DNA of 64,000 nucleotides from Eledone cirrhosa. Lineage: Eukaryota. Shown here one piece after another: positions 30,552 to 63,854 of the stretch (position 1 is the stretch's first letter; the number at the start of each line of letters is the position of its first letter). A model generated the notes under the pieces. The model saw only the letters and a program-made list of their open reading frames with translations. It made no database searches and was not told where the DNA came from. The stretch is taken from assembly GCA_964016885.1 (NCBI GenBank), contig OZ024740.1, positions 256,866,001-256,930,000 on the forward strand, given 5' to 3'. A program made the translations under genes and the position numbers.

Positions 30552-30738
30552 TTTTTCTACTTTAGGCACAAGGCCAGCAATTACCCAGCGCATTACTGGT
30601 ACTTTATTTTATCGACCCCGTAAGGATGAAAGGCAAAGTCAACCTCGGCAGGATTTGAACTCAGATCGTAAAGGGACGTAACTATGCTGGAAAGCATGGC
30701 GTCCGACCCTCTACTGATACTGCCAATCCACCGCCCTC
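30552..30738 (-). mobile_element. Full-length Nin-type tRNA-SINE with 15-bp TSD
   Basis: TSD ggtttagcaaataat at 30537-30551 and 30739-30753; A box TGGCAGTATCAG, B box GAGTTCAAATCC. Confidence 0.92.
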
Positions 30739-31241
30739 GGTTTAGCAAATAATGAAAAAGTTTCAAAATAAATTTTAAAAAATTGACTTTACCTACTATA
30801 GTTACCTTTACCGATCGGTTTCGAATCCCAAAAATAAAACGGAGACCATACGGCCTTCGTTGCAAAGAGAGATTCTCGTCAGAAGGTTCTTTTCATTGAA
30901 AGAATATAAAATTCCTGAATTTAAATCACAAACTAGCGCTATCAAAACTGTTCCTGGGATGAGAGTGGATGATGTAGAAACAGGTTTATCAAGGGCCGAA
31001 GCAAAGATAGAGGCAAAAGGAGGTAGGTCGAACTAGCCACAGCTATTGCTAGCAGCAGTCAGAACGACCAAATTTGTTCTCAACATTAGTGGAGGTAGTA
31101 GTAATAGGATATACGTTCCTTCACGCACAAGGCGCCAGGGTACGCATGTATTGTCCAACTAAATGCCAGTGTGGGCGCCTTGTGCGTGAAGGAACGTATA
31201 TCCTATATATTTATATATATATATATATATACGTATACATA

Positions 31242-32131: not shown

Positions 32132-32186
32132 TTTATTATATATATTTCAAGGGTACCAGTATTTCGGTACGCCCTCATCAGATAAA
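32132..32186 (-). ncRNA. Minimal type I hammerhead ribozyme
   Basis: UUUAU-CUGAUGA-[GGGcgUACC..GGUACCC uu]-GAA-AUAUAUAU-A^AUAAA. Confidence 0.65.
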
Positions 32187-32304: not shown

Positions 32305-32359
32305 TTTATCTGATGAGGGCGTACTAAAATACTGGTACCCTTGAAATATATATAATAAA
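32305..32359 (+). ncRNA. Minimal type I hammerhead ribozyme (mirror copy)
   Basis: Same fold on the right arm. Confidence 0.65.
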
Positions 32360-33689: not shown

Positions 33690-34022
33690 TAGAATTTGAA
33701 CAGTAAAAACAGGAAAAAACATAAGGATGGAATAAAGATTACTTCAGTTATTTTGATATTTTTATATGCTCAGTGCTGAAGTTTGGTGTTGTTTTCTGAA
33801 AGCACCGGTCACATATGAATAAAGACATTCAAACAACAGTAGAATTCACCTCTGCGCTAATGACCATGGAAACAATCTATTGAGAAGTATATATATCATA
33901 CATAATTGATATATTTGAAAAATGTTTTATATATATATATATATATAAGTTAAAACAGAAAACAAAAACAATAAAGGGTGCAGTACAAAATGTTAGTATT
34001 AGGTTCACGATATATATATATA

Positions 34023-34955
34023 TATATTATTATAAATCATGTCTACAGAATTATTAGATAAACAAAATATATACTCCATTTCCTCTGCCAAACAGCACAA
34101 TCAACCATATAAAAAATCAATTATACTAAGCCATAAGGATAAAAGCTCCTATGAAGAAATCTCCGACAAATAAACGAGAGTGGCTTCTTCGCGGTATCCA
34201 CAGCAGGTTATTTATCCAACATTTCGACAGCATGCATAAATCGACCAAGTACATAATTAACTATATGCAATTCGGTGTAAAATCAAACATAGAAGAACTG
34301 TGTACATACCGTAACCATCCCTACCATGGTTTCATCCGTATTTTTAGATATCCTATTACTAGGAAATCCATTGAGTTCGGAATCATCAGGAGATAAACTC
34401 AAAAATAGACACTTAGTATTCCAAGCCGATCGCGTCAAAATTGGATTCAAAAATGGCTAAGAATCACACTATGGCCGTGGTCAAGTTGGAAAGAATGTGA
34501 TTGGCTGCTGACGGCGTGTAGGCCTGTCGCTCGAAAGCGCAGCCAAATATCGCCAAATTTAATCTCAACCTTACGGGAGATTATTAAATATAAAGGTTTA
34601 CATATACATAAATTTATATATGTTATAACCGGTCACTTTTTAGCTCTATGAAGAATTAATAAATTAAATACTCAGAGCAATATATTATTATAAATCATGT
34701 CTACAGAATTATTAGATAAACAAAATATATACTCCATTTCCTCTGCCAAACAGCACAATCAACCATATAAAAAATCAATTATACTAAGCCATAAGGATAA
34801 AAGCTCCTATGAAGAAATCTCCGACAAATAAACGAGAGTGGCTTCTTCGCGGTATCCACAGCAGGTTATTTATCCAACATTTCGACAGCATGCATAAATC
34901 GACCAAGTACATAATTAACTATATGCAATTCGGTGTAAAATCAAACATAGAAGAA

Positions 34956-34959
<4 letters not shown>
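34023..34959 (+). repeat. 658-bp-period partial tandem duplication, possible PLE 3' remnant
   Basis: 34023-34301 is repeated at 34681-34959, with a hammerhead-like fold at 34501-34546. Confidence 0.75.
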
Positions 34960-35021
<62 letters not shown>

Positions 35022-35213
35022 TTAAGTTTGTTGGTTCACCACTGGATAGAATTAGTCATTCCGTATGGCCAATCTTGGTGTAATATTGTGGAGAGTACTC
35101 AACGTAGTGCAGTTCACCCGTCTTCGTTTGTGTAGTTGGTGGTGCGAATACGGAGTTAATTATAAATAAAATAACAGGAGGCTGGACTGGTGTAAATCCT
35201 TGAAAGGTGTATT

Positions 35214-35271
35214 ATACTATGATCATTTCAATGACCGGGTTCCATATGAATCCGGTGATATCATCAGGTAT
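35214..35271 (-). ncRNA. Minimal type I hammerhead ribozyme
   Basis: AUAC-CUGAUGA-[uAUcACCGGaUUC..GAAcCCGGUcAUu]-GAA-AUGAUCAU-A^GUAU, with a palindromic stem III. Confidence 0.75.
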
Positions 35272-37174
35272 TGGAATATAACAAAGGAATATGTGAAAAA
35301 CCATGGGTCCGAAAAATCAGAGAGAGAGATAAAGAGAACGACTGACCAACTAAACTAGCTACTTTCACCTCGGCCAGTCGCCTTCAAAATGATGGCAACT
35401 GAATTTACTAATGACCACCTGGTGAGGGGGAGAAGGCTTATAATGCACTACCACCTCCCCGTCAAAGAAAACGGGGAAGAAAGAAAGGAAGAATGAAGAA
35501 AAAAAAGGAAGAAAGAAGTCAGCATAATGGTCACACTACATTCATGCGAGAAAACGCCGTGAAAAATGGTACTCCAAAGAATCTATATTTAACAAAGGCA
35601 TATATAATGGGTGTCTGTATGGTCTAATGTGTGAACCGAAAATTGGAACGTTAAAGTTATGTTACGAGTTATAGGATGAAATTAAATTAAAAAATATTAA
35701 ATTGCAAAATGATAAATTGAAAAATAAATTATTAGAAAATTAAAGGTTAAGGTAGCGAGATTTATTTAATGAACTTACAGAGAGAGTCTTATATGAAAAA
35801 AATTATCTCGATAAGATATCAGGATAGGATATAGAGTAAAGATTTAGATTGTGAGTCCCAGCCCCCCCCCACCCCCCACCCCATGAGTCAGCCAGTTACG
35901 AGTAGTATCGTCCAGCGAAAGAAATGGAAATTAATTTTTCTGAGTACTCTAGGAACGTAGCTACCTTAGGCCCCGGGAGTGCTAGCGGGAAGTCTACAAT
36001 TTCGACAGGCCATCGTCTATACCAAACGAATATTATTAATTCACACATGAGGGGTTTATTTACGTGCCAGTAGAGGCATGATACAGCTAATAGTCATGCC
36101 TAAACCTGGAGTTTATAGGTATAAGTATAATATGGCGGCCAAAACAGGCGGCGCGGTGGGACCGAGGCAAAGCCAGCCGCTCCGAGGTAATTTCATTTAC
36201 CGAAAGAGGGGACATTTATTTTTCCGAGCACTCAAGGAAGGCTGAACTTTCCGAGTACCCAGCGCGCAGCCGGGAAAAGCCACCACATAAGTCGATGGTA
36301 GCAAACCCAATGAAAAGTGCAAATAGACCATAAGTAAGTTAAAGTCCCAGTTAGTCCGGGTTATAAGTAGTGTGGTTCTTTGGTGGGTAGGGGGCTATGA
36401 AAGGTGCATAATGACCTGAGTAAGGAAAGTTACAAAAAAAAAATAATAAAAGCAGAATACAAAGATAAAATACAAAGATAAAGATAAAATACAAAGATAA
36501 ATAATACATTGATAAAAAAATTAATAAAAGTAAATAACTAGGGATGTAGAAAGACGGAAGTATATAAGAACGTTTCGGAGGAATCACAATGTAGGAGAAA
36601 TACAATATAGATCAAGTTGTAGTAAGATAATACAGGTTGTACATATAGATATAGAGGATGGAAGAGATGGAATAGTAACAGGTGGTACCTAGTGTAAAGT
36701 TCGGGTCTCCGAATTCAGTGTGAGTCACAAAAAAGTCCTGAGGTATAGAGTAGAGAATTATGTCAATACAATACATGTTTTAGTATAATACGTAGAATTT
36801 TGTCGGAATCGGATCATCCGACAAGGCAGTAGTATCGAGTGGACTGTAGATAAAGCACAGAGCAACCAAAATCCGAATGGTAAGTAGATCAGTTAATCCC
36901 ATGCTGGCGGTAGTTGTACACTGGAGTCAGTGTCGCTGTTCAATATGACATCTGGAAGTGCTATTATTGGAGTATTATTTCTTTAGGTTTGTTGGTTCAC
37001 CACTGGATAGAATTAGTCATTCCGTATGGTCAATCTTGGTGTAATATTGTGGAGAGTACTCAACGTACTGCAGTTCACCCGTCTTCGTTTGTGTAGTTGG
37101 TGGTGAGAATACGGAGTTAATTATAAATAAAATAACAGGAGGTTGGACTGGTGTAAATCCTTGAAAGGTTTATT

Positions 37175-37232
37175 ATACTATGATCATTTCAATGACCAGG
37201 TTCCATATGAATCCGGTGATATCATCAGGTAT
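37175..37232 (-). ncRNA. Minimal type I hammerhead ribozyme (second copy)
   Basis: Same core, 1961 nt from the first copy. Confidence 0.75.
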
Positions 37233-38353
37233 TGGAATATAACAAAGGAATATGTAAAAAACCATGGGTCCGAAAAATCAGAGACAGAGACAAAGAGGTC
37301 GACTGACCAACTAGCTGCCTTCACCTCGGCCAGTCGCCCTCAAAGTGATGGTAACTGAATCTACTAATGACCATCTGGTGAGAGGGCGAAGGCTTATAAT
37401 GCACTACCACCTCCCCGTCAATATCTTATCGAGATTAATTTTTTCATATAAGATTCTCTCTGTAAGTTCATTAAATTAACCTCGCTACCTTAACCTTTAA
37501 TTTTCTAATAATTTATTTTGCAATTTAATATTTTTATATTTAATTTCATCCTATAACTCGTAACATAAGTTTAACGTTCCAATTTTCGGTTCACACATTA
37601 AACCATACAGACACCCATTATATATGCCTTTGTTAAATATAGATTCTTTGGAGCAGCATTTTTCGCGTTGTTTTCTAACATGAATGTAGTGTGACCCCTA
37701 TGCTGACTTCTTTCTTCCTTTTTTTTCTTCATTCTTCCTTTCTTCCTCTTTTTCTTTGACGTATTTACATACATATACAAACATATACACATACATATAT
37801 ACACATATACACACATATCCACACACACATACATATATACATACATATATTTATATGTACACACACATATATATATATATATACATATAATAATAAGGTT
37901 TGACGGACCCAGCATATTTATCAATGCCAGTACCGGTTGTATCTCAGCGCACTCAATGGGCAATGTAAGATACATTACCAGAGTATACACATAGTTCTTT
38001 GCCTCAACACAACACACGTAAAACGGGTGCCTGTAAGGTACCCGGACTCGGGTTTCTGCTGCACTAATGCAGCAATAAGGTGCACTGCGCCATCTGTCTG
38101 CATATATTATGCAACAATGCACAATCGGCTCATGCGGCTTCATCAGCGGGTATCGCCTAATCACTAACCAATCGATCGACAGAATCCAAACACCAGCCCA
38201 TGCCGGTCATGACTGTTTGTGACAACCGATACGGTAAAGCGATTAGCAACTGGCAACCGATAGGACTCTATCTCTCAACCAGCCACTGATTTACAGATGG
38301 AATTACTTCATTTACATATATATATATATATACATATATATACATACATATAA

Positions 38354-38433
<80 letters not shown>

Positions 38434-38899
38434 ACATATATATACACATATATATACATACACATACATACACATACACATACATATACATATATACACA
38501 TACACACACACATACACACATATACATACATACATAGATATACACACATACACATATATACGTATATATATATATATATATGTGTATATATACGTATATA
38601 TATATATATATATATATACGTATATATACACATAAACACATATACAAATACACAAAGGGGAAACATTTAAGGAAACAATCAAGATATGAAAAACCATCAA
38701 ATAATATAAATTTAAATTAAGTAACATAAAATACAAGTAAATAAAATTAAAGTATAAGTTATAAGTTTGAAAGGGAACAAAACAAAGGTAGGGTTGGGAT
38801 GGGAGGGGGGCACGGGGGAGTGTTTTTAATGTTTAATGTCGATTCCGTTGTCTTATGGGATCATCGTTCAGGGGGAAGAACTGGTCTATATGACATGTA

Positions 38900-39310
38900 A
38901 GTTGCATAGTTTTTGTGCATGCAATTCGGGCAGTGTTCTGAGAGTCTATTGATGTATAAAGGGAGGTTTCTAAATCGAGAGTTACATCTAAGAAGTTGGC
39001 TTTAGTTAAACTCGAATTTATAGTTATTCTGAGGCTTAGGTTATTGAAGAAAGCGTTAAGTTTTTTCCGAAACCCATCGGTAGTCGTGGGGTTAATGTTA
39101 TGCAGGGCAAAGAGGCCACCATCTCGGTATAATCCGCCTGTAAGGCATGTGAAGAGGGTTTTCTTCCGGTTAAGGATAAACAGGCCCACCAGATCACTAA
39201 TCTCAGCCGAGTCACTAGTACCCATCCTGACATCGAAGAGAGTCTCCGATTTTTTGTTCATCGAGTAGGACCCGTTATGGTACAAAAAGGTCTAACGTGC
39301 ATGGAGGATC
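38900..39310 (-). pseudogene. Penelope-like reverse transcriptase fragment (Naiad-like motifs)
   Basis: FDVRMGTSDSAEISDLVGLFIL, GLYRDGG (decayed YRDD) and NFLDVTLDL motifs. Confidence 0.75.
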
Positions 39311-39320
39311 ACATCCTGCT

Positions 39321-40141
39321 CGGCTGTTACTTAAATATAAGTATGTATCCGTACATACATATATGTATACAGACGTACAGTAGTATGTATATATATATAC
39401 ACATACATGCACGCATATATATATGTACGTATGGATTCACCGAACATTTATTATAATGCTCGGTGTGTTTGTAAAGAAACATCCCGAATTAAGCTGTACA
39501 GTGTCTAGCAACCATCGTTGCTTATTTGTTCAACACTGACACAGGAACGCTGTACTAGTTTCAAGCTTATTAGCTATCGTCAGCAACGTATACCTTCCTG
39601 CCACATGATTGAACGTCTGAAAGTGTATACTTTCCTTATGCATATTAACGGCTGAGCAGCCTAATTTGCATATCGAGTGCATACATATATGTATGTACGG
39701 ATACATACTTATATTTAAGTAACAGCCGTACTAAGAGTGAGAAATGAAATTTCGTTTCATTTTTTCCGTGTATCGCTTTCGGTGCGCCCGGCCGATTAAC
39801 TCATTCGATATGCAAATTAGGCTGCTCAGCCGTTAATATACATAAGGAAAGTATATACTTTCAGACGTTCAATCATCTGGCAGGAAGGTATACGTTGGTG
39901 ACGATAGCTAATCAGCTTGAAACTAGTACAGCGTTCCTTTGTCAGTGTTGAACAAATCAGAAACGATGGTTGCTAGACACTGTACGGTTTAATTCGGGAT
40001 GTTTGTTTACAAACACACCGAACATTATAATAAATGTTCGGTGAATCCATACGTACATATACATATGTGTGCATGTATGTATATATATATATATACATAC
40101 TACTGAAAGTATGTATACATATATGTATGTACGGATACATA

Positions 40142-40186: not shown

Positions 40187-40379
40187 ATAATATTAATGAA
40201 AGTAAAATTTTTACTCATTTACTAGGTATATCTTAGCTCAATGCAATGATAGGATCATGCAGAACCGCTATTTAGTTAGAATTTGCTTACAAGATACACA
40301 TTTGTATTTTAATTAAACTCTGATGACAATCATAATTTATGCTCACCAATGGCAAATTTTATATGTATACACACACACT

Positions 40380-40539
<160 letters not shown>

Positions 40540-40559
40540 CATATATATAGATATATATA

Positions 40560-42420
40560 CATTCACAGCGCCATTTATATTAGACGCAGTCAAACTTATT
40601 CTGGAAAACAACATTTTCTTCTTCAAAGGAAAGAATTACATCCACATTAGAAGCACAGCGTTGGGAACGAAGTTTGCTCCCGTTTACGCGAACTCTGTAA
40701 TGGGATACTTAGAACAACAACTCTACCAAGAAATAAAGGAAAAATATAGCACTGACTTTAGAAAGAACATTGAAAAGTCTTGGAAGAGATACCTTGACGA
40801 CTGTTTCATCATCTGGACAGAATATCTAGATATTCTGGATGAGTTCAATATCCTCCTGAATAACCTACATCCATCTCTCCAATTCACATAAGAGATGAGT
40901 AGTACCGAATTACCATTCCTAGATATAATGATAATCAAAACCGACACCACCATTACCACGGATATATATTATAAACACGCAGACACCCATCAATATCTGA
41001 ATTTTAATCGTGCCATCTACCTCATACAAAACGCAACATCCCATACTGCCTAGCCCGAAGAATTTTTACTATTGTAGAAGATACGAATACCAGGCACAAA
41101 CGCCTAACAGAACTGAGAGAATTTTTGCTTAAACAAAAATACCATCTCTACTTATAGAAAATGGCATATAGCGGGCTAAAAAAATACCTATACAACAACT
41201 TAGGACAACCCAAGGAAGGAGAAACCAAGAACTGGTCATACCATTTATAATGACACACAACCCATGTAACCAGACTATCTTCAACACTGCCAAAGGAAAC
41301 CTACCGATCATTGCTCAAAGTAATGAATTAAAAGGCTTAATCACAGACCGATCTTTGACTCTTAGTAAAAGACAGCCGAAAAATTTGAAGCAATTACTAA
41401 CAAAGGCAAAGTTTAACCTTAACAACAAAGACCAATCATTCAATGTATCCAAATGCAGTGATAGTCGATGTGGCACATGTCAATCCATACACACGGTCAA
41501 TATATGAACACAAAAACTGGAAAAATATTCCCAAATGCAAATGTGAACTGCAAAAGCAAAATCTAATTTACTGCATTAAATGCCCGAATTGTGAAGAACT
41601 ATATGTCGGTCAAACTGGAAATGCACTATCGGAACGTGCACGGGTGCACCGACAGCAAATTAGAGACCCAAATGTCCGTCAGATACCCCTGAGTAACCAT
41701 CTAGCAACATGTGGTCAGAAAATATTCATAATATTTCCATTCTACAAATTACACAGCCCAAGTGAAATCAAGAGAAAAATTAAAGAAAAGAATTTTATTG
41801 ATGAATTCTAACCCAAGCTAAATGAACAATAATAATGCCTAGAGGTATTACTCCTACTATGACTACGCCTACGAACATGTTGACTACCACCATAACAACA
41901 ACAACAGTAATAATAATAATAAAAGTGATGTTGATGGTGATTATTACTGAAGACTTTTTATAAAAACCCTAGAAAATACTATTTTTATCATTTCTAAAAA
42001 TAGCAAAACAATTGATGCTTTGGATAGGGTCAAATAGAAGTCGTTAGACATGCTCAACCAACCGAGACGCCTAAACCAATCAGCTTTAGTAATCCAGTGA
42101 AACTACACACGGATTGGTCGAAATACAGTTTGCAAACTTAGCATTCTGTAGCCACTTTTCACTGTATATAAGGCACAAACTTTACCCATCTCATTAAAGT
42201 TGAAAATTGCAAACTTGACAGTCACCACATAATATTAACCTGAAGATTGCGAAAGCATGAAAGTACTTGTTCAATTAACACTTAACATTTAATATTCTAA
42301 CATACTATTTCATTCTAATACCATTATACATTTTAAAGGATTGTAAATAAAACGAGTAAATCAGACAAAGTTGGAATTCCTTTTATCAATACAATCCTCT
42401 ATACACAATCATACACACCC
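40560..42420 (+). mobile_element. Penelope-like element (Neptune-type RT + GIY-YIG), 5'-truncated and inactivated
   Basis: [39 protein letters not shown] and NLIYCIKC..LYVGQTG..ERARVHR motifs; flanked by (TA)n-rich tracts. Confidence 0.9.
42237..42271 (+). ncRNA. Hammerhead ribozyme in the PLE 3' pseudo-LTR
   Basis: AAC-CUGAAGA-uUGCgaaaGCAu-GAA-AGUACU-U^GUU. Confidence 0.7.
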
Positions 42421-43697: not shown

Positions 43698-44410
43698 TTG
43701 CTCTACGGTTCTTATATATTTGATATATATTTATCCTTATCGAGCCCCCTTTGGATTTTAGTCTTCAAATTTATTATTATTACTATATATATATATATGT
43801 TTTATTTATATATTTTTTTTTTTTTAATGCAACACGTGGTTCGAGTCATTCTCAGATTTGCATTTGCTTTGTCAACGCAGATAGTTATTTTCTTCTCCTT
43901 TGGTGACCATCCAGGATATTTGACTACTCTGATTTACTGATTAATTGGTGAAATATATTTCTTACTTAAAGAAATGTATACAAAGGAGATTAATCATTTT
44001 AAAAGGTATCTATATTTGAAGTTCTAGTTAAACCTTAATTAGTTACCTACCTAGCTATGTGTGCTTGCATTCTTTAACAATTATTCCCTGTGATTGTTCC
44101 ATGTATTTATTTTATATAAATATATGTGAATCTATTTCTAGTTGAAATGTAATGCTCCGATCTATTCATTGGAATCTTTGAGCTTATTCTACAGTGGATA
44201 TGGCGCATGTCTCTCAGATATGACAACCCTTAATTTAATTTTGGATATATATATATTGTTATACTTTGGGAGGGTCATGTTGCCAATAAGAAACACACGC
44301 ACCAGTTGTTTCACTTCAATTTAATTTATTATATATTTATAAATTTACAAATTTATAAATTTCTGGTTGGTTGGTTGGTTCCACAACCAGATAGTTGTTT
44401 ATATATATAT

Positions 44411-44455
44411 AGTCATAGTTCTTTCGTCACACACTCTGTGACCTCTTCAGTGACT
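44411..44455 (-). ncRNA. Type I hammerhead ribozyme
   Basis: AGUCA-CUGAAGA-gGUCACAgagugUGUGAC-GAA-AGaaCU-A^UGACU. Confidence 0.8.
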
Positions 44456-45419
44456 GGGGATTTCTTTCTTCGTTTCTGTGCCTTTCCTTTCTTCTATCCT
44501 ACGCCATTTTGTTTGTGTGTGGGTTGCGTGCTCAGTTTGCGCATGCGCCACATCCGGGTGTCTGTGTGTGTTTGTGTTCATTTTTCTATTTTTCTATTTA
44601 TATTTTTCTATTTGTTTGTTTATTTATTTATTTATTGTTGGTTGGTTGTTTGTTCTATGTGTGTGTGTGTTTTCATTTTGTCTTGTGTGTGTTTTCATTT
44701 TGTGTGTGTTTTCAATTGTAAGTTGTTTGTTTTATGTGTGTGTGTGTTTTCATTTTGTCCTTAATTGTAAGTTGTGATGTTGCTGTTCCACTCATATTTT
44801 CTATTTAATTTTGGTTTTAATTCTTTTATGCTTACTGCCTCTGTAATTTGCCTAAACATTGCGTCTTTCTTGTGTGTGGATTCTATTTTTATTTCTATGC
44901 TCTCTAATTTACCCCTGTGTTCTATCTTAGCATGTTGGTAGAGCACAGATGATTCTTTATTATCTTGGAGGTCTCGCCAGTGTTCATTTATTCGTTCCCC
45001 TATACTACGAGCTGTCTCACCTATGTACACTATATTTTTGTTTCTACATTGTCCTTCAGTACATCTTATGCTATATACTACATTTCTAGTTTTACAGTTA
45101 ATATGGGGGCTTATTTTACAGGTTATACATTTCTTATCTATACATGAGGGTCTTTGGAACGGGTATGTCTTGCTAATAAGTGTTTTTACGGAGGTACCAG
45201 GTCTTTCTACTATCTTAATATTGAGATTATGTTTCTTTAGGGCCCTTCTAAATTTGTAGGCTAGTTCGCCTCTAGGGGTTGTATTGATGAACATTACACT
45301 CTGGTATTTATTGCTATCATACCATGAGTTTATTCTATTGGCCTTGTTCTTAGTTCTTTCTATTCTATTCCAAAATTTGCTCCTATACAAAGGGCAGGTC
45401 CCATTTATGTCATTATTTA

Positions 45420-45421
<2 letters not shown>
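44411..45421 (-). mobile_element. Penelope-like element 3' portion (GIY-YIG endonuclease, 3'UTR, terminal HHR)
   Basis: [38 protein letters not shown], stop at 44761; (TA)n on both sides. Confidence 0.9.
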
Positions 45422-58918: not shown

Positions 58919-59339
58919 AAGCACTCGACAAGTATGTGGAGTAGATATACGATATTAACAAATGGAAACTAAATTTATAAAACCATATTTATTTCATTAT
59001 TCATATTTCAAGGATACCTAGTTAAATTATGGTATGCCTTCATCAGACAACATACAATATATATCAGTTTTACGAATAAGCATTGAATAAGCATCTCTCC
59101 GTCTTTTGTACTTATCCATAACACTCCGACTTACTAAAATAATATAAACAAACCACTATCCTGATGTCCTCCAAAAGTAATGGTCGCATTTTGAAAGGGT
59201 ACGTCAATGCTTATTTGTAAAACTGATATATATTGTATTTTGTCTGATGAAGGCATACCATAATTTAACTTGGTATCCTTGAAATATGTATAATGAAATA
59301 AATATGGTTTTATAAATATAGTTTCCATTTGTTAATATC

Positions 59340-59729: not shown

Positions 59730-60610
59730 CGCGATGTGTCAGAAAAGTTCCAGGACTGATGTCACAAAAGATTTATTTCAAACCGAAACTTCACACTAAG
59801 AGTTTTCTTATTCAAAGTAACCCCCCTGGAGTCTAATGCATTTTTCCATACTTTTCTGCCACGCTTGCATGCATTCATACAAGGATTCTTCGGGGATTTT
59901 CCGCAGTTTCGTCGTCACGGCCTTTTTGATGTCGTCCACGTCTTCAAAACGGGTCCTCTCCGCGTCGTACTCGAGGATCCATGACTCATCACCGGTGATG
60001 ACTGTCCCTAGCAAGTCTGGTTCGGTTTCAAGGCGCTCAAGGATGTCCTGACACCCTTGCATGCGTCGACCCATCTTGTCATCGTGCAGCAGTTTTGGCA
60101 CCATTTTCGCGCAGATTTTCCGCATGTCCAGATCTTCAGTGAGAATCTTCCAGACGCTGTTCCGATTTGCCATCAGTCGAACAGTCAGCCGACGATCGCT
60201 ACGGACCATCTGCCTGACGCACTCAACGTCGACCTCAGTCCTGTTTGTTGAGGGCCTTCCGCTCCTGGGGTCATCTTCCACGTCCTCGCGTCCTTCTTTA
60301 AACCTCTTGCACCACTCAAAAACATTTGAGCGTGACATCGTCTCACCTCCATAGACTTGCTGCAGTAATCCCAGTGCTTCTGGCGGAGTTTTCAAGTTTG
60401 TTCGTTGCTCTGTGCTCATTGCTTGACGACCTGAAACAGAGGAGATGTATATAAAATTATGAAGAAAAAAGTTTGATCGCCGCAGAGAGGTAAGATTAGA
60501 GTTACATACTCCAGGGGGATTACTTTGAAGGAGAAAATTCTTAGTGTGAAGTTTGGGTTTGAAATAAATCTTTTGTGACATCAGTCCTGGAACTTTTCTC
60601 ACACACCTCG
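59730..60610 (-). mobile_element. Internally deleted mariner transposon with ~103-bp inverted ends and TA TSD
   Basis: HTH region (WCKRFKEGREDVEDDPRSGRP), AKMVPK and TGDESW, then a jump to RFEDVDDIK. TA at 59728 and 60611. Confidence 0.92.
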
Positions 60611-60649
60611 TATATAACCAAAGATTAATATGTTTCGTTGATTAGTCAA

Positions 60650-61022
60650 TAGATTAGAAGCACTCGACAAAGGATATTGCTGGAATATTAATTATTATCT
60701 AAAATATTAATAAAAGAAAAATATTCTCATAATCAAAATATATATTTTATTATACATATTTCAATGGTACAATGGTGTTTAAGTACTTTTTCATCAGACA
60801 AAATATAAGATTGATATACGACATACCGCTACGGTTTTGATTATTCAATTCCAGTAGTGGCACTACTGGAATTGAATAATCAAAAAAGTAGCGGTATGTG
60901 TCATATCAAATCTAATATTTTGTTTGATGAAAACGTACTTAAACACAATTGTACCATTGAAATATATATAATAAAATATATATTTTGAGTATGAGAATAT
61001 TTTTCATTTATTACTATTTTGA

Positions 61023-63087: not shown

Positions 63088-63854
63088 TGATGACGAAAGG
63101 CTTCTCTGTACGCTTCTTCGGAAAGTATGTTTATTCCCTTTCAGAAACTAATTAGTTGGGAGTGAAATTTTAGTAAGTAAGTTAATTTTATAATTTTCTT
63201 ATTTTACGTCTGTCATATTATTGTTCTGCAACCCCATGCATTGAACCACAAAGTTACTAAGACAAAACCTATATATTTGCTAGCATAAGTATGCATCTGT
63301 GTATATATATGTTACTAGATATACTAATTCTTTATAATTATCTCCAAATTATTTGTCGAGCAAAAAATTGGCCAAAACTGCTGCTATAGTAACAGTCAGG
63401 CTGCTGTCTTCTTAACAAACCACTTTCCACTGATTGACATCGATGTCACGTGATTGATTCTTTTGAATTTGCCACCGACGCAGTAGGCAGTGATTTTCTC
63501 AATGGCTAGGAATTTAGTCCACGCTTTGCTTTCTTCCATCCACTGAATTATTCTTGTATAAGTTCCCTGTGTCCACGTATTGCCTGGAAACTTAGCTGAG
63601 AATAGACTTCCCTGATGACGAAAGGCTTCTCTGTACGCTTCTTCGGAAAGTATGTTTATTCCCTTTCAGAAACTGATTAGTTGGGAGTGAAATTTTAGTA
63701 AGTAAGTTAATTTTATAATTTTTTTATTTTACGTCTCTCATATTATTGTTCTGCAACCCCATGCATTGAACCACAAAGTTACTAATACAAAACCTATATA
63801 TTTGCTAGCATAAGTATGCATCTGTGTATATATATGTTACTAGATATACTAATT

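Follow-up and report, generated by a model that had tools for sequence, protein, structure and literature searches.

The window examined here, the whole 64,000-nt stretch of Eledone cirrhosa DNA to which all positions refer, contains a copy of a high-copy, ORF-free element with two hammerhead motifs and an inverted terminal segment. We consider this copy an insertion that would have been made in trans by a Penelope-like element (PLE), through paired-end priming and joining of two arms as proposed below, a reading with a probability of about 0.78. Judged by its sequence features, the element is classed as an oversized, retrozyme-type, non-autonomous PLE, a new size variant with PLE insertion architecture.

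The window copy is arranged as a (TA)n tract, A1, B1, C, A2 and an inverted B, followed by a microsatellite (Table 1). Both hammerheads lie on the minus strand, and the RNA sense of the element is therefore the minus strand; unit position 1 is defined as the first base after the predicted hammerhead cut. In unit positions, the copy reads inverted 1719-1360, forward 1714-1961, 1-1961 and 1-203. A1 (35015/35020-35465) and A2 (36976/36981-37421) are 94% identical over 455 columns, with the repeats and their hammerhead cores spaced by 1961 nt, while B1 (35460-35819) and the inverted segment (37761-37421) are 89% identical with gaps counted, in agreement with the A-B-C-A-B(inverted) structure of the original prediction. 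The shared CGTCAA (35460-35465) at which the inverted B was said to end is likewise confirmed, being common to the outer end of the inversion and the point where A2 begins; this outer end adjoins the forward truncation point. The inner junction of the inversion overlaps by 1 nt at 37421. Both flanks, examined for a target-site duplication, consist of microsatellite. An assembly duplication is unlikely because the substitutions that separate the repeats (3-6%) are mostly private. Public contigs, from one sample, do not bridge the window's own junctions, which is neutral for either reading.

Table 1. Features of the window copy (positions in the window).
Feature	Position	Strand	Remark
(TA)n target, at the element's 3' end	34959..35019	.	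Same flank after nearly all family 3' ends
A1, downstream terminal repeat, pLTR-like; contains hammerhead 1, short end and long end	35015..35465	-	
Tail, ~146 nt between short and long 3' ends	35015..35161	-	
Short 3' end, unit position 54-57	35164-35161	-	
Long 3' end, unit position 198-203	35020-35015	-	
Predicted 6-bp helix closing the tail domain, 35144-35139 with 35042-35037	35037..35144	-	Lies between both ends
Type I hammerhead 1, PLE-type, short palindromic helix III; predicted cut 35218/35217	35214..35271	-	
Hairpin upstream of hammerhead, bounds approximate	35335..35392	-	One pair altered on both sides across sister families
B1, unit body (unit positions 1719-1360)	35460..35819	-	
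C, non-coding unit body	35820..36975	-	
GC-rich block	36130..36237	.	Kept in all sister families at 76-90%
A2, upstream repeat; long-primed arm ends here, unit position 1714	36976..37421	-	
Type I hammerhead 2; predicted cut 37179/37178, 1961 nt from cut 1	37175..37232	-	
Inverted arm (unit positions 1360-1719)	37421..37761	+	Subfamily alleles as B1 at 6/7 linked sites
Six bases as at the beginning of canonical inverted arms with a short end; degenerate TA/CA microsatellite follows	37762..37767	+	

The element is multicopy, as had been anticipated. A unit search of the 3.0-Gb genome returned 3536 first-look candidates, 40 of which were scored, and the hammerhead pattern matched 5,408 times against 0 for its reversed control. 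Sampled sites are the best-scoring copies and hence biased to long ones; several searches and one fetch yielded 79 merged sites, and a tail search added 25, for 104. Copies differ from the commonest letter per column by a median of 3.8% (101 segments), and of 18 distances from one cut to the next, 15 fall within 1903-1993 nt. Head-to-tail repeats with at least two hammerheads occur, though as a minority arrangement. Circular permutation among copies, which had been proposed as a check, is not seen, and the 3' ends of copies are fixed.

The hammerhead and tail are common to at least three other ORF-free sister families with units of about 1.85-3.1 kb. One, of ~1.98 kb, is 67% identical over the whole unit; another, of 2.4-3.1 kb, has internal duplications; a further one has a unit of ~1.85 kb, and an older one has a tail that is ~70% identical. 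Tails are 82-95% identical in sister families, compared with only 67-76% for their bodies. In sister families (L239, L240, L277), internal duplications are fixed and the GC-rich block is inverted relative to the window family. This block, which presumably contains a YY1-like motif, is a candidate promoter element. Two full units at one locus (L002/L006, G000:C2:56953652-56960499) are identical over 1868 compared bases, reflecting either a recent duplication or an assembly artefact.

The absence of a convincing ORF, as originally reported, is supported. No stop-free frame of the unit is longer than 86 aa, and none above 121 aa occurs in six units tested. A tblastn comparison of the unit with 14 natural PLE ORFs gave a best E of 0.33, and the 1279-aa ORF of a young PLE in the window had no match in the unit. 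Indels relative to sister units are multiples of three in 21/73 and 21/67 cases, and mismatches between families show no 3-nt period and no coding pattern. The unit thus resembles retrozymes in coding for no protein and lacks the RT and GIY-YIG ORF of an autonomous PLE. Segment C had been singled out for homology searching as a potential decayed PLE ORF, and protein, Pfam and indel tests reveal no sign of one. It is barely credible that C is such a relic or that the element is a single-copy local rearrangement; the richness of the window in PLE fragments speaks for either, but the tests above argue against the former and thousands of dispersed copies against the latter. Pfam searches with 10 unit frames produced two sub-cutoff matches in low-complexity frames, which were rejected.

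Recurring inserts of 140-195 nt were considered as introns and rejected, as they belong to one short repeat family with differing 5' ends. This SINE-like repeat of ~180 nt has inserted repeatedly and independently, its 5' ends differing, at unit position 1571 (L092, L095, L100, L104, L130) and occupies other unit positions elsewhere (L014, L025, L030, L038, L093, L136, L151). It is also present at about 30555-30745 of the window.

The motif CTGATGA-31 nt-GAAA-TGATCA-TA is present on the minus strand in both repeats, and a motif scan of the window identified 10 distinct hammerhead-like sites, including the two type I motifs of the element. Like retrozymes, the element has a type I hammerhead per repeat unit. 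Its design comprises a proximal helix I of 4 bp, a long helix II and a palindromic helix III of 2-3 bp. The pair beside the core is not the G10.1-C11.1 of the canonical retrozyme hammerhead, and searches against Rfam at gathering and E-value thresholds matched no hammerhead, only chance microsatellite hits. The hammerheads described earlier as intact are therefore so in their core motifs, both of which are present, but not in the short helix III, the adjoining pair or Rfam recognition. The hammerhead region is among the least variable of 20 full bins (0.027 non-top letters, compared with 0.026 at 393-490). It lacks subfamily polymorphism, and its identity between families is 90-100%.

Forward 3' ends fall at unit positions 48-62 or 195-208 in 96 of 104 sites and are nearly always followed by (TA)n. 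With the predicted cleavage site as reference, the two ends are about 57 and 203 nt downstream, and the AT-rich or (TA)n target is that expected of PLEs. Loose ends in public contigs have (TA)n at both places. The segment between the ends corresponds to the PLE tail, which spans ~146 nt here, whereas published PLE tails are given as 30-40 bp, often at one end (PMC8557442, PMC3846280). Folding of the tail is no better than that of shuffled sequences (z -0.10), with single-sequence folding z-scores near zero, and structural covariation across families is weak. The predicted 6-bp helix that would close the tail is conserved, without compensatory change; as modelled, it would place both start sites at the base of one domain.

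An inverted, 5'-truncated arm, as in EN+ PLEs, is present at 67 of 104 sites. Among 62 scorable inverted arms, 52 start at a fixed end, and in 52/52 this is the end opposite to that of the forward arm, consistent with the optional tail at one end, and hence two RT start sites, of EN+ PLEs. The end pairs at the 104 sites are long-short in 33 cases and short-long in 19, with no same-type pair (Fisher p=1.3e-14); the 79 sites chosen without a tail query contribute 19 of each. A further 110 loci, from hammerhead-pattern and sister-family searches and upstream fetches, gave 44 pairs, of which 35 are long-short, 3 short-short, none long-long and 6 non-canonical. Two of the pairings (L256, L272) probably join separate elements, while L214 and L312 are true short-short mirror images and hence exceptions. 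At L105, an inverted arm that is 75% identical, lies 800 nt away and ends near the long site would make a long-long pair; it was left out of the count by a 78% identity filter. The young coding PLE shows the same arrangement, with one short and one long end in 18/18 scorable loci of 20 head-to-head loci. Inverted arms often re-copy template that the other arm had copied, with an overlap of up to ~1.4 kb (L091), and partial tandems form pseudo-LTRs, as in EN+ PLEs.

Both arms of an insertion derive from a single source lineage, as allele sharing indicates. Direct repeats agree at 135/145 and inverted arms at 306/323 positions over 39 linked subfamily sites, compared with an agreement of 56% for different insertions. 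The rate of rare-allele sharing is 71 per 17,189 nt within sites and 84 per 308,960 nt in the between-site control, a difference of ~15x; the identical L002 pair was left out of this comparison. Of 15 linked positions in the window copy, 14 agree, and the differences are for the most part private. Later gene conversion could also produce such sharing between arms. In the near-identical young PLE, the arms also share private variants (L386, L388, L389).

We propose that a Penelope-like reverse transcriptase/GIY-YIG endonuclease would likely copy the element in trans. The PLE protein, probably a dimer, would bind the conserved hammerhead-plus-tail domain and nick both target strands. Priming would use the long site for one strand and the short site for its partner, and joining of the resulting 5'-truncated cDNAs would follow. 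In the window copy, the cDNA primed at the long site would extend over 2407 nt and stop at 37421, while the second primer would start at the short site and jump to free RNA where the first enzyme had stopped. Such a template jump would give the copy its twin-priming appearance. Priming at the short site followed by a jump is preferred because the forward arm ends at the long site, for which the pairing rule predicts a short start. From their sequence, the six bases at 37762..37767 may be the stub that preceded the jump; the match was noticed post hoc in AT-rich sequence with a background of 90/15012 flank positions (0.6%), and the stub expression matches at 2/27 long-end and 1/16 short-end sites. 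At L188, a canonical short stub of 16 nt is followed by a jump to within 26 nt of the start of the forward arm, and L037 and L101 have comparable jumps within canonical arms.

The original prediction interpreted this junction as twin priming of the L1 type (mechanism as described in PMC2837659), in which, on one long RNA, the second target strand would have annealed through microhomology to an arbitrary internal site beside the stop of the first RT. The geometry is real at the window copy, where the outer end at 1719 adjoins the forward start at 1714 and CGTCAA could represent primer homology. As the mechanism of the family it does not hold, given the 52 of 62 scorable inverted arms that begin at a fixed end. 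Such geometry is outermost in only 2/104 sites (L001, L188), one of which, L188, starts with a short stub, and (TA)n rather than a poly(A) tail follows the 3' ends. Twin priming is thus an unlikely origin of this copy. Still less probable is an inversion after insertion, either in place or through a canonical inverted arm losing its outer 290 nt. Sequence alone cannot tell this origin apart, and a canonical arm together with A2 would form a 300-bp inverted repeat that could be unstable, but the breakpoint would need to fall exactly at the element end or a stem-loop boundary, and jumps within inverted arms recur at other loci (L037, L011, L196, L204).

At 2407 nt, the direct part of the window copy by itself surpasses one unit, and a second cleavage site is passed at 12 of 79 sites, upholding the earlier view that the template exceeded one unit. 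Its proposed length of about 2.76 kb is not upheld, and is not implied by the inversion, because inverted arms start at fixed ends and re-copy the template. The longer template may be an uncleaved tandem transcript, which is somewhat favoured and explains the same data, or a ribozyme-made circle, which we rate at a little below even odds; the circle is compatible with the trans-copying reading and bears only on the template. A hammerhead dimer would cleave the RNA, the 1.96-kb monomer would circularise and the RT would lap it more than once, following a model proposed in PMC4209133 and PMC7229834. A circle is consistent with the similarity of direct repeats, which equals that of inverted arms (shared to private rare alleles of 26:181 and 71:504), with conservation of the hammerhead region both inside the family and across sister families, and with two copies (L007, L021) of exactly one unit. 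Starts at the 5' side also cluster at unit position 190-220, near the long site (7/27, p=0.003), although query bias, (TA)n microhomology or a protein block on tandem RNA may underlie this cluster. Against a circle, only L106 begins at the cut, the hammerhead core is intact at only 63/95 sites, and the active fold is not favoured, as the predicted free fold or minimum differs from it. Moreover, PLE-type hammerheads with a short palindromic helix III are reported to require dimerisation and to cleave poorly in vitro (PMC4209133), hammerhead cleavage is described as dispensable for insertion of an anole PLE in vitro (PMC11167929), and 8/9 Xenopus dimers are reported not to have cleaved (bioRxiv 10.64898/2026.07.22.740005). 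We tentatively raise the doubtful scenario in which non-coding RNA circles of 2-3 kb, forming one clade, have lasted over at least four family radiations, each circle presenting a single folded tail domain that supplies, with its flanks, both active sites of a Penelope dimer, with one RNA as template for both arms of every mirror-image insertion. If this were true, such circles would be 2-3x the largest animal retrozyme reported in the 2026 survey (972 bp).

The element shares features with several known systems. With animal non-LTR retrozymes, as characterised in PMC7229834 and bioRxiv 10.64898/2026.07.22.740005, it has in common the lack of coding, a GC content of 39%, a single type I hammerhead in each unit, the occurrence of monomers as well as partial tandems, co-occurrence with PLEs and proposed PLE mobilisation. 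The unit here is 1.9-2.0 kb (up to 3.1 kb in sisters, 1961 nt in the window copy), in contrast to the short monomers of retrozymes, typically ~300 bp (PMC7229834) and 51-972 bp in the 2026 survey, which looked for repeats of period up to 1000. Retrozymes form long arrays with a canonical hammerhead, whereas the present family consists of dispersed head-to-head insertions with a PLE-type hammerhead. Because both its size and its hammerhead type depart from those of retrozymes, the element is filed as non-autonomous with PLE architecture.

Published EN+ PLE insertions likewise feature partial tandems, an inverted 5'-truncated copy, (TA)n as target, two 3' ends and a tail confined to one side, and a hammerhead with a short palindromic helix III (PMC8557442, PMC3846280, PMC11167929); they differ in the shorter tail noted above and in having an ORF. 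The anole PLE nicks both strands, its RT starts at two internal sites that define the tail, and its protein is predicted to be a dimer (PMC11167929). L1 twin or dual priming also involves two primings on opposite target strands and the geometry of the window inversion (PMC2837659); unlike L1, the family has no poly(A), its second priming is normally at a fixed site and its arms overlap on the template. The MRC1-like Chlamys elements are non-autonomous PLEs with pLTRs and head-to-tail copies, but these are green algal and have 3' ends similar to those of autonomous families (PMC8557442), a partner of a kind not found here. Three coding PLE groups were sampled (14 ORFs obtained with two queries, and the 1279-aa young family); their hammerheads differ from that of the element, and none matches its tail. 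Protein, hammerhead-pattern, tail and diverged-tail searches, together with 40 fetched upstream regions, revealed no ORF continuous with the hammerhead.

The formation of pseudo-LTRs, inverted arms and tails by PLEs is stated to be unresolved in PMC8557442 and PMC11167929. A near-strict pairing rule that holds for the non-coding family as well as for the young coding PLE predicts that the two strands are primed at different RNA sites by one complex, and a tail of 146 nt allows the two ends to be told apart easily. Our literature search found no counted end-pairing rule (supplements and subscription journals may hold one) and no 2-kb animal retrozyme (subscription journals, Repbase and supplements may hold such families). 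These findings suggest that hammerhead-bearing PLE parasites can reach ~2 kb, a size that a survey limited to period 1000 would miss.

The window contains further elements of related types. A second hammerhead element adjoins the copy at 34022-34966 (-), with 287-nt direct repeats 658 nt apart (99%) and one hammerhead, cut at 34322, that has a palindromic helix III; it terminates in (TA)n and is likely another non-autonomous PLE unit. The young autonomous PLE lies at 44240-45420 (-) and has a 1279-aa ORF, a unit of ~4.3 kb, its own hammerhead with a non-palindromic loop III and a tail of ~57 nt (L349-L398); all 150 of its 150 scored matches are 99-100% identical. Fragments of two other PLE families, at 38833-39291 (-) and 40313-41811 (+), correspond to open frames of 750-800 aa elsewhere in the genome (L156, L157, L173, L174). 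We take several regions at 300-22000 to be decayed non-LTR retrotransposon copies, by their endonuclease and RT motifs, and 59808-60641 (-) to be a mariner-like transposase fragment, also by motif. Seven more type I hammerhead motifs occur at 30809-30882, 32137-32181, 32310-32354, 39553-39583, 59244-59292, 60751-60797 and 63612-63682, those at 32137 and 32354 forming a head-to-head pair. Related to the motif at 63612 are three tandem hammerhead units ~560 nt apart at another locus (L177, 6350-7469).
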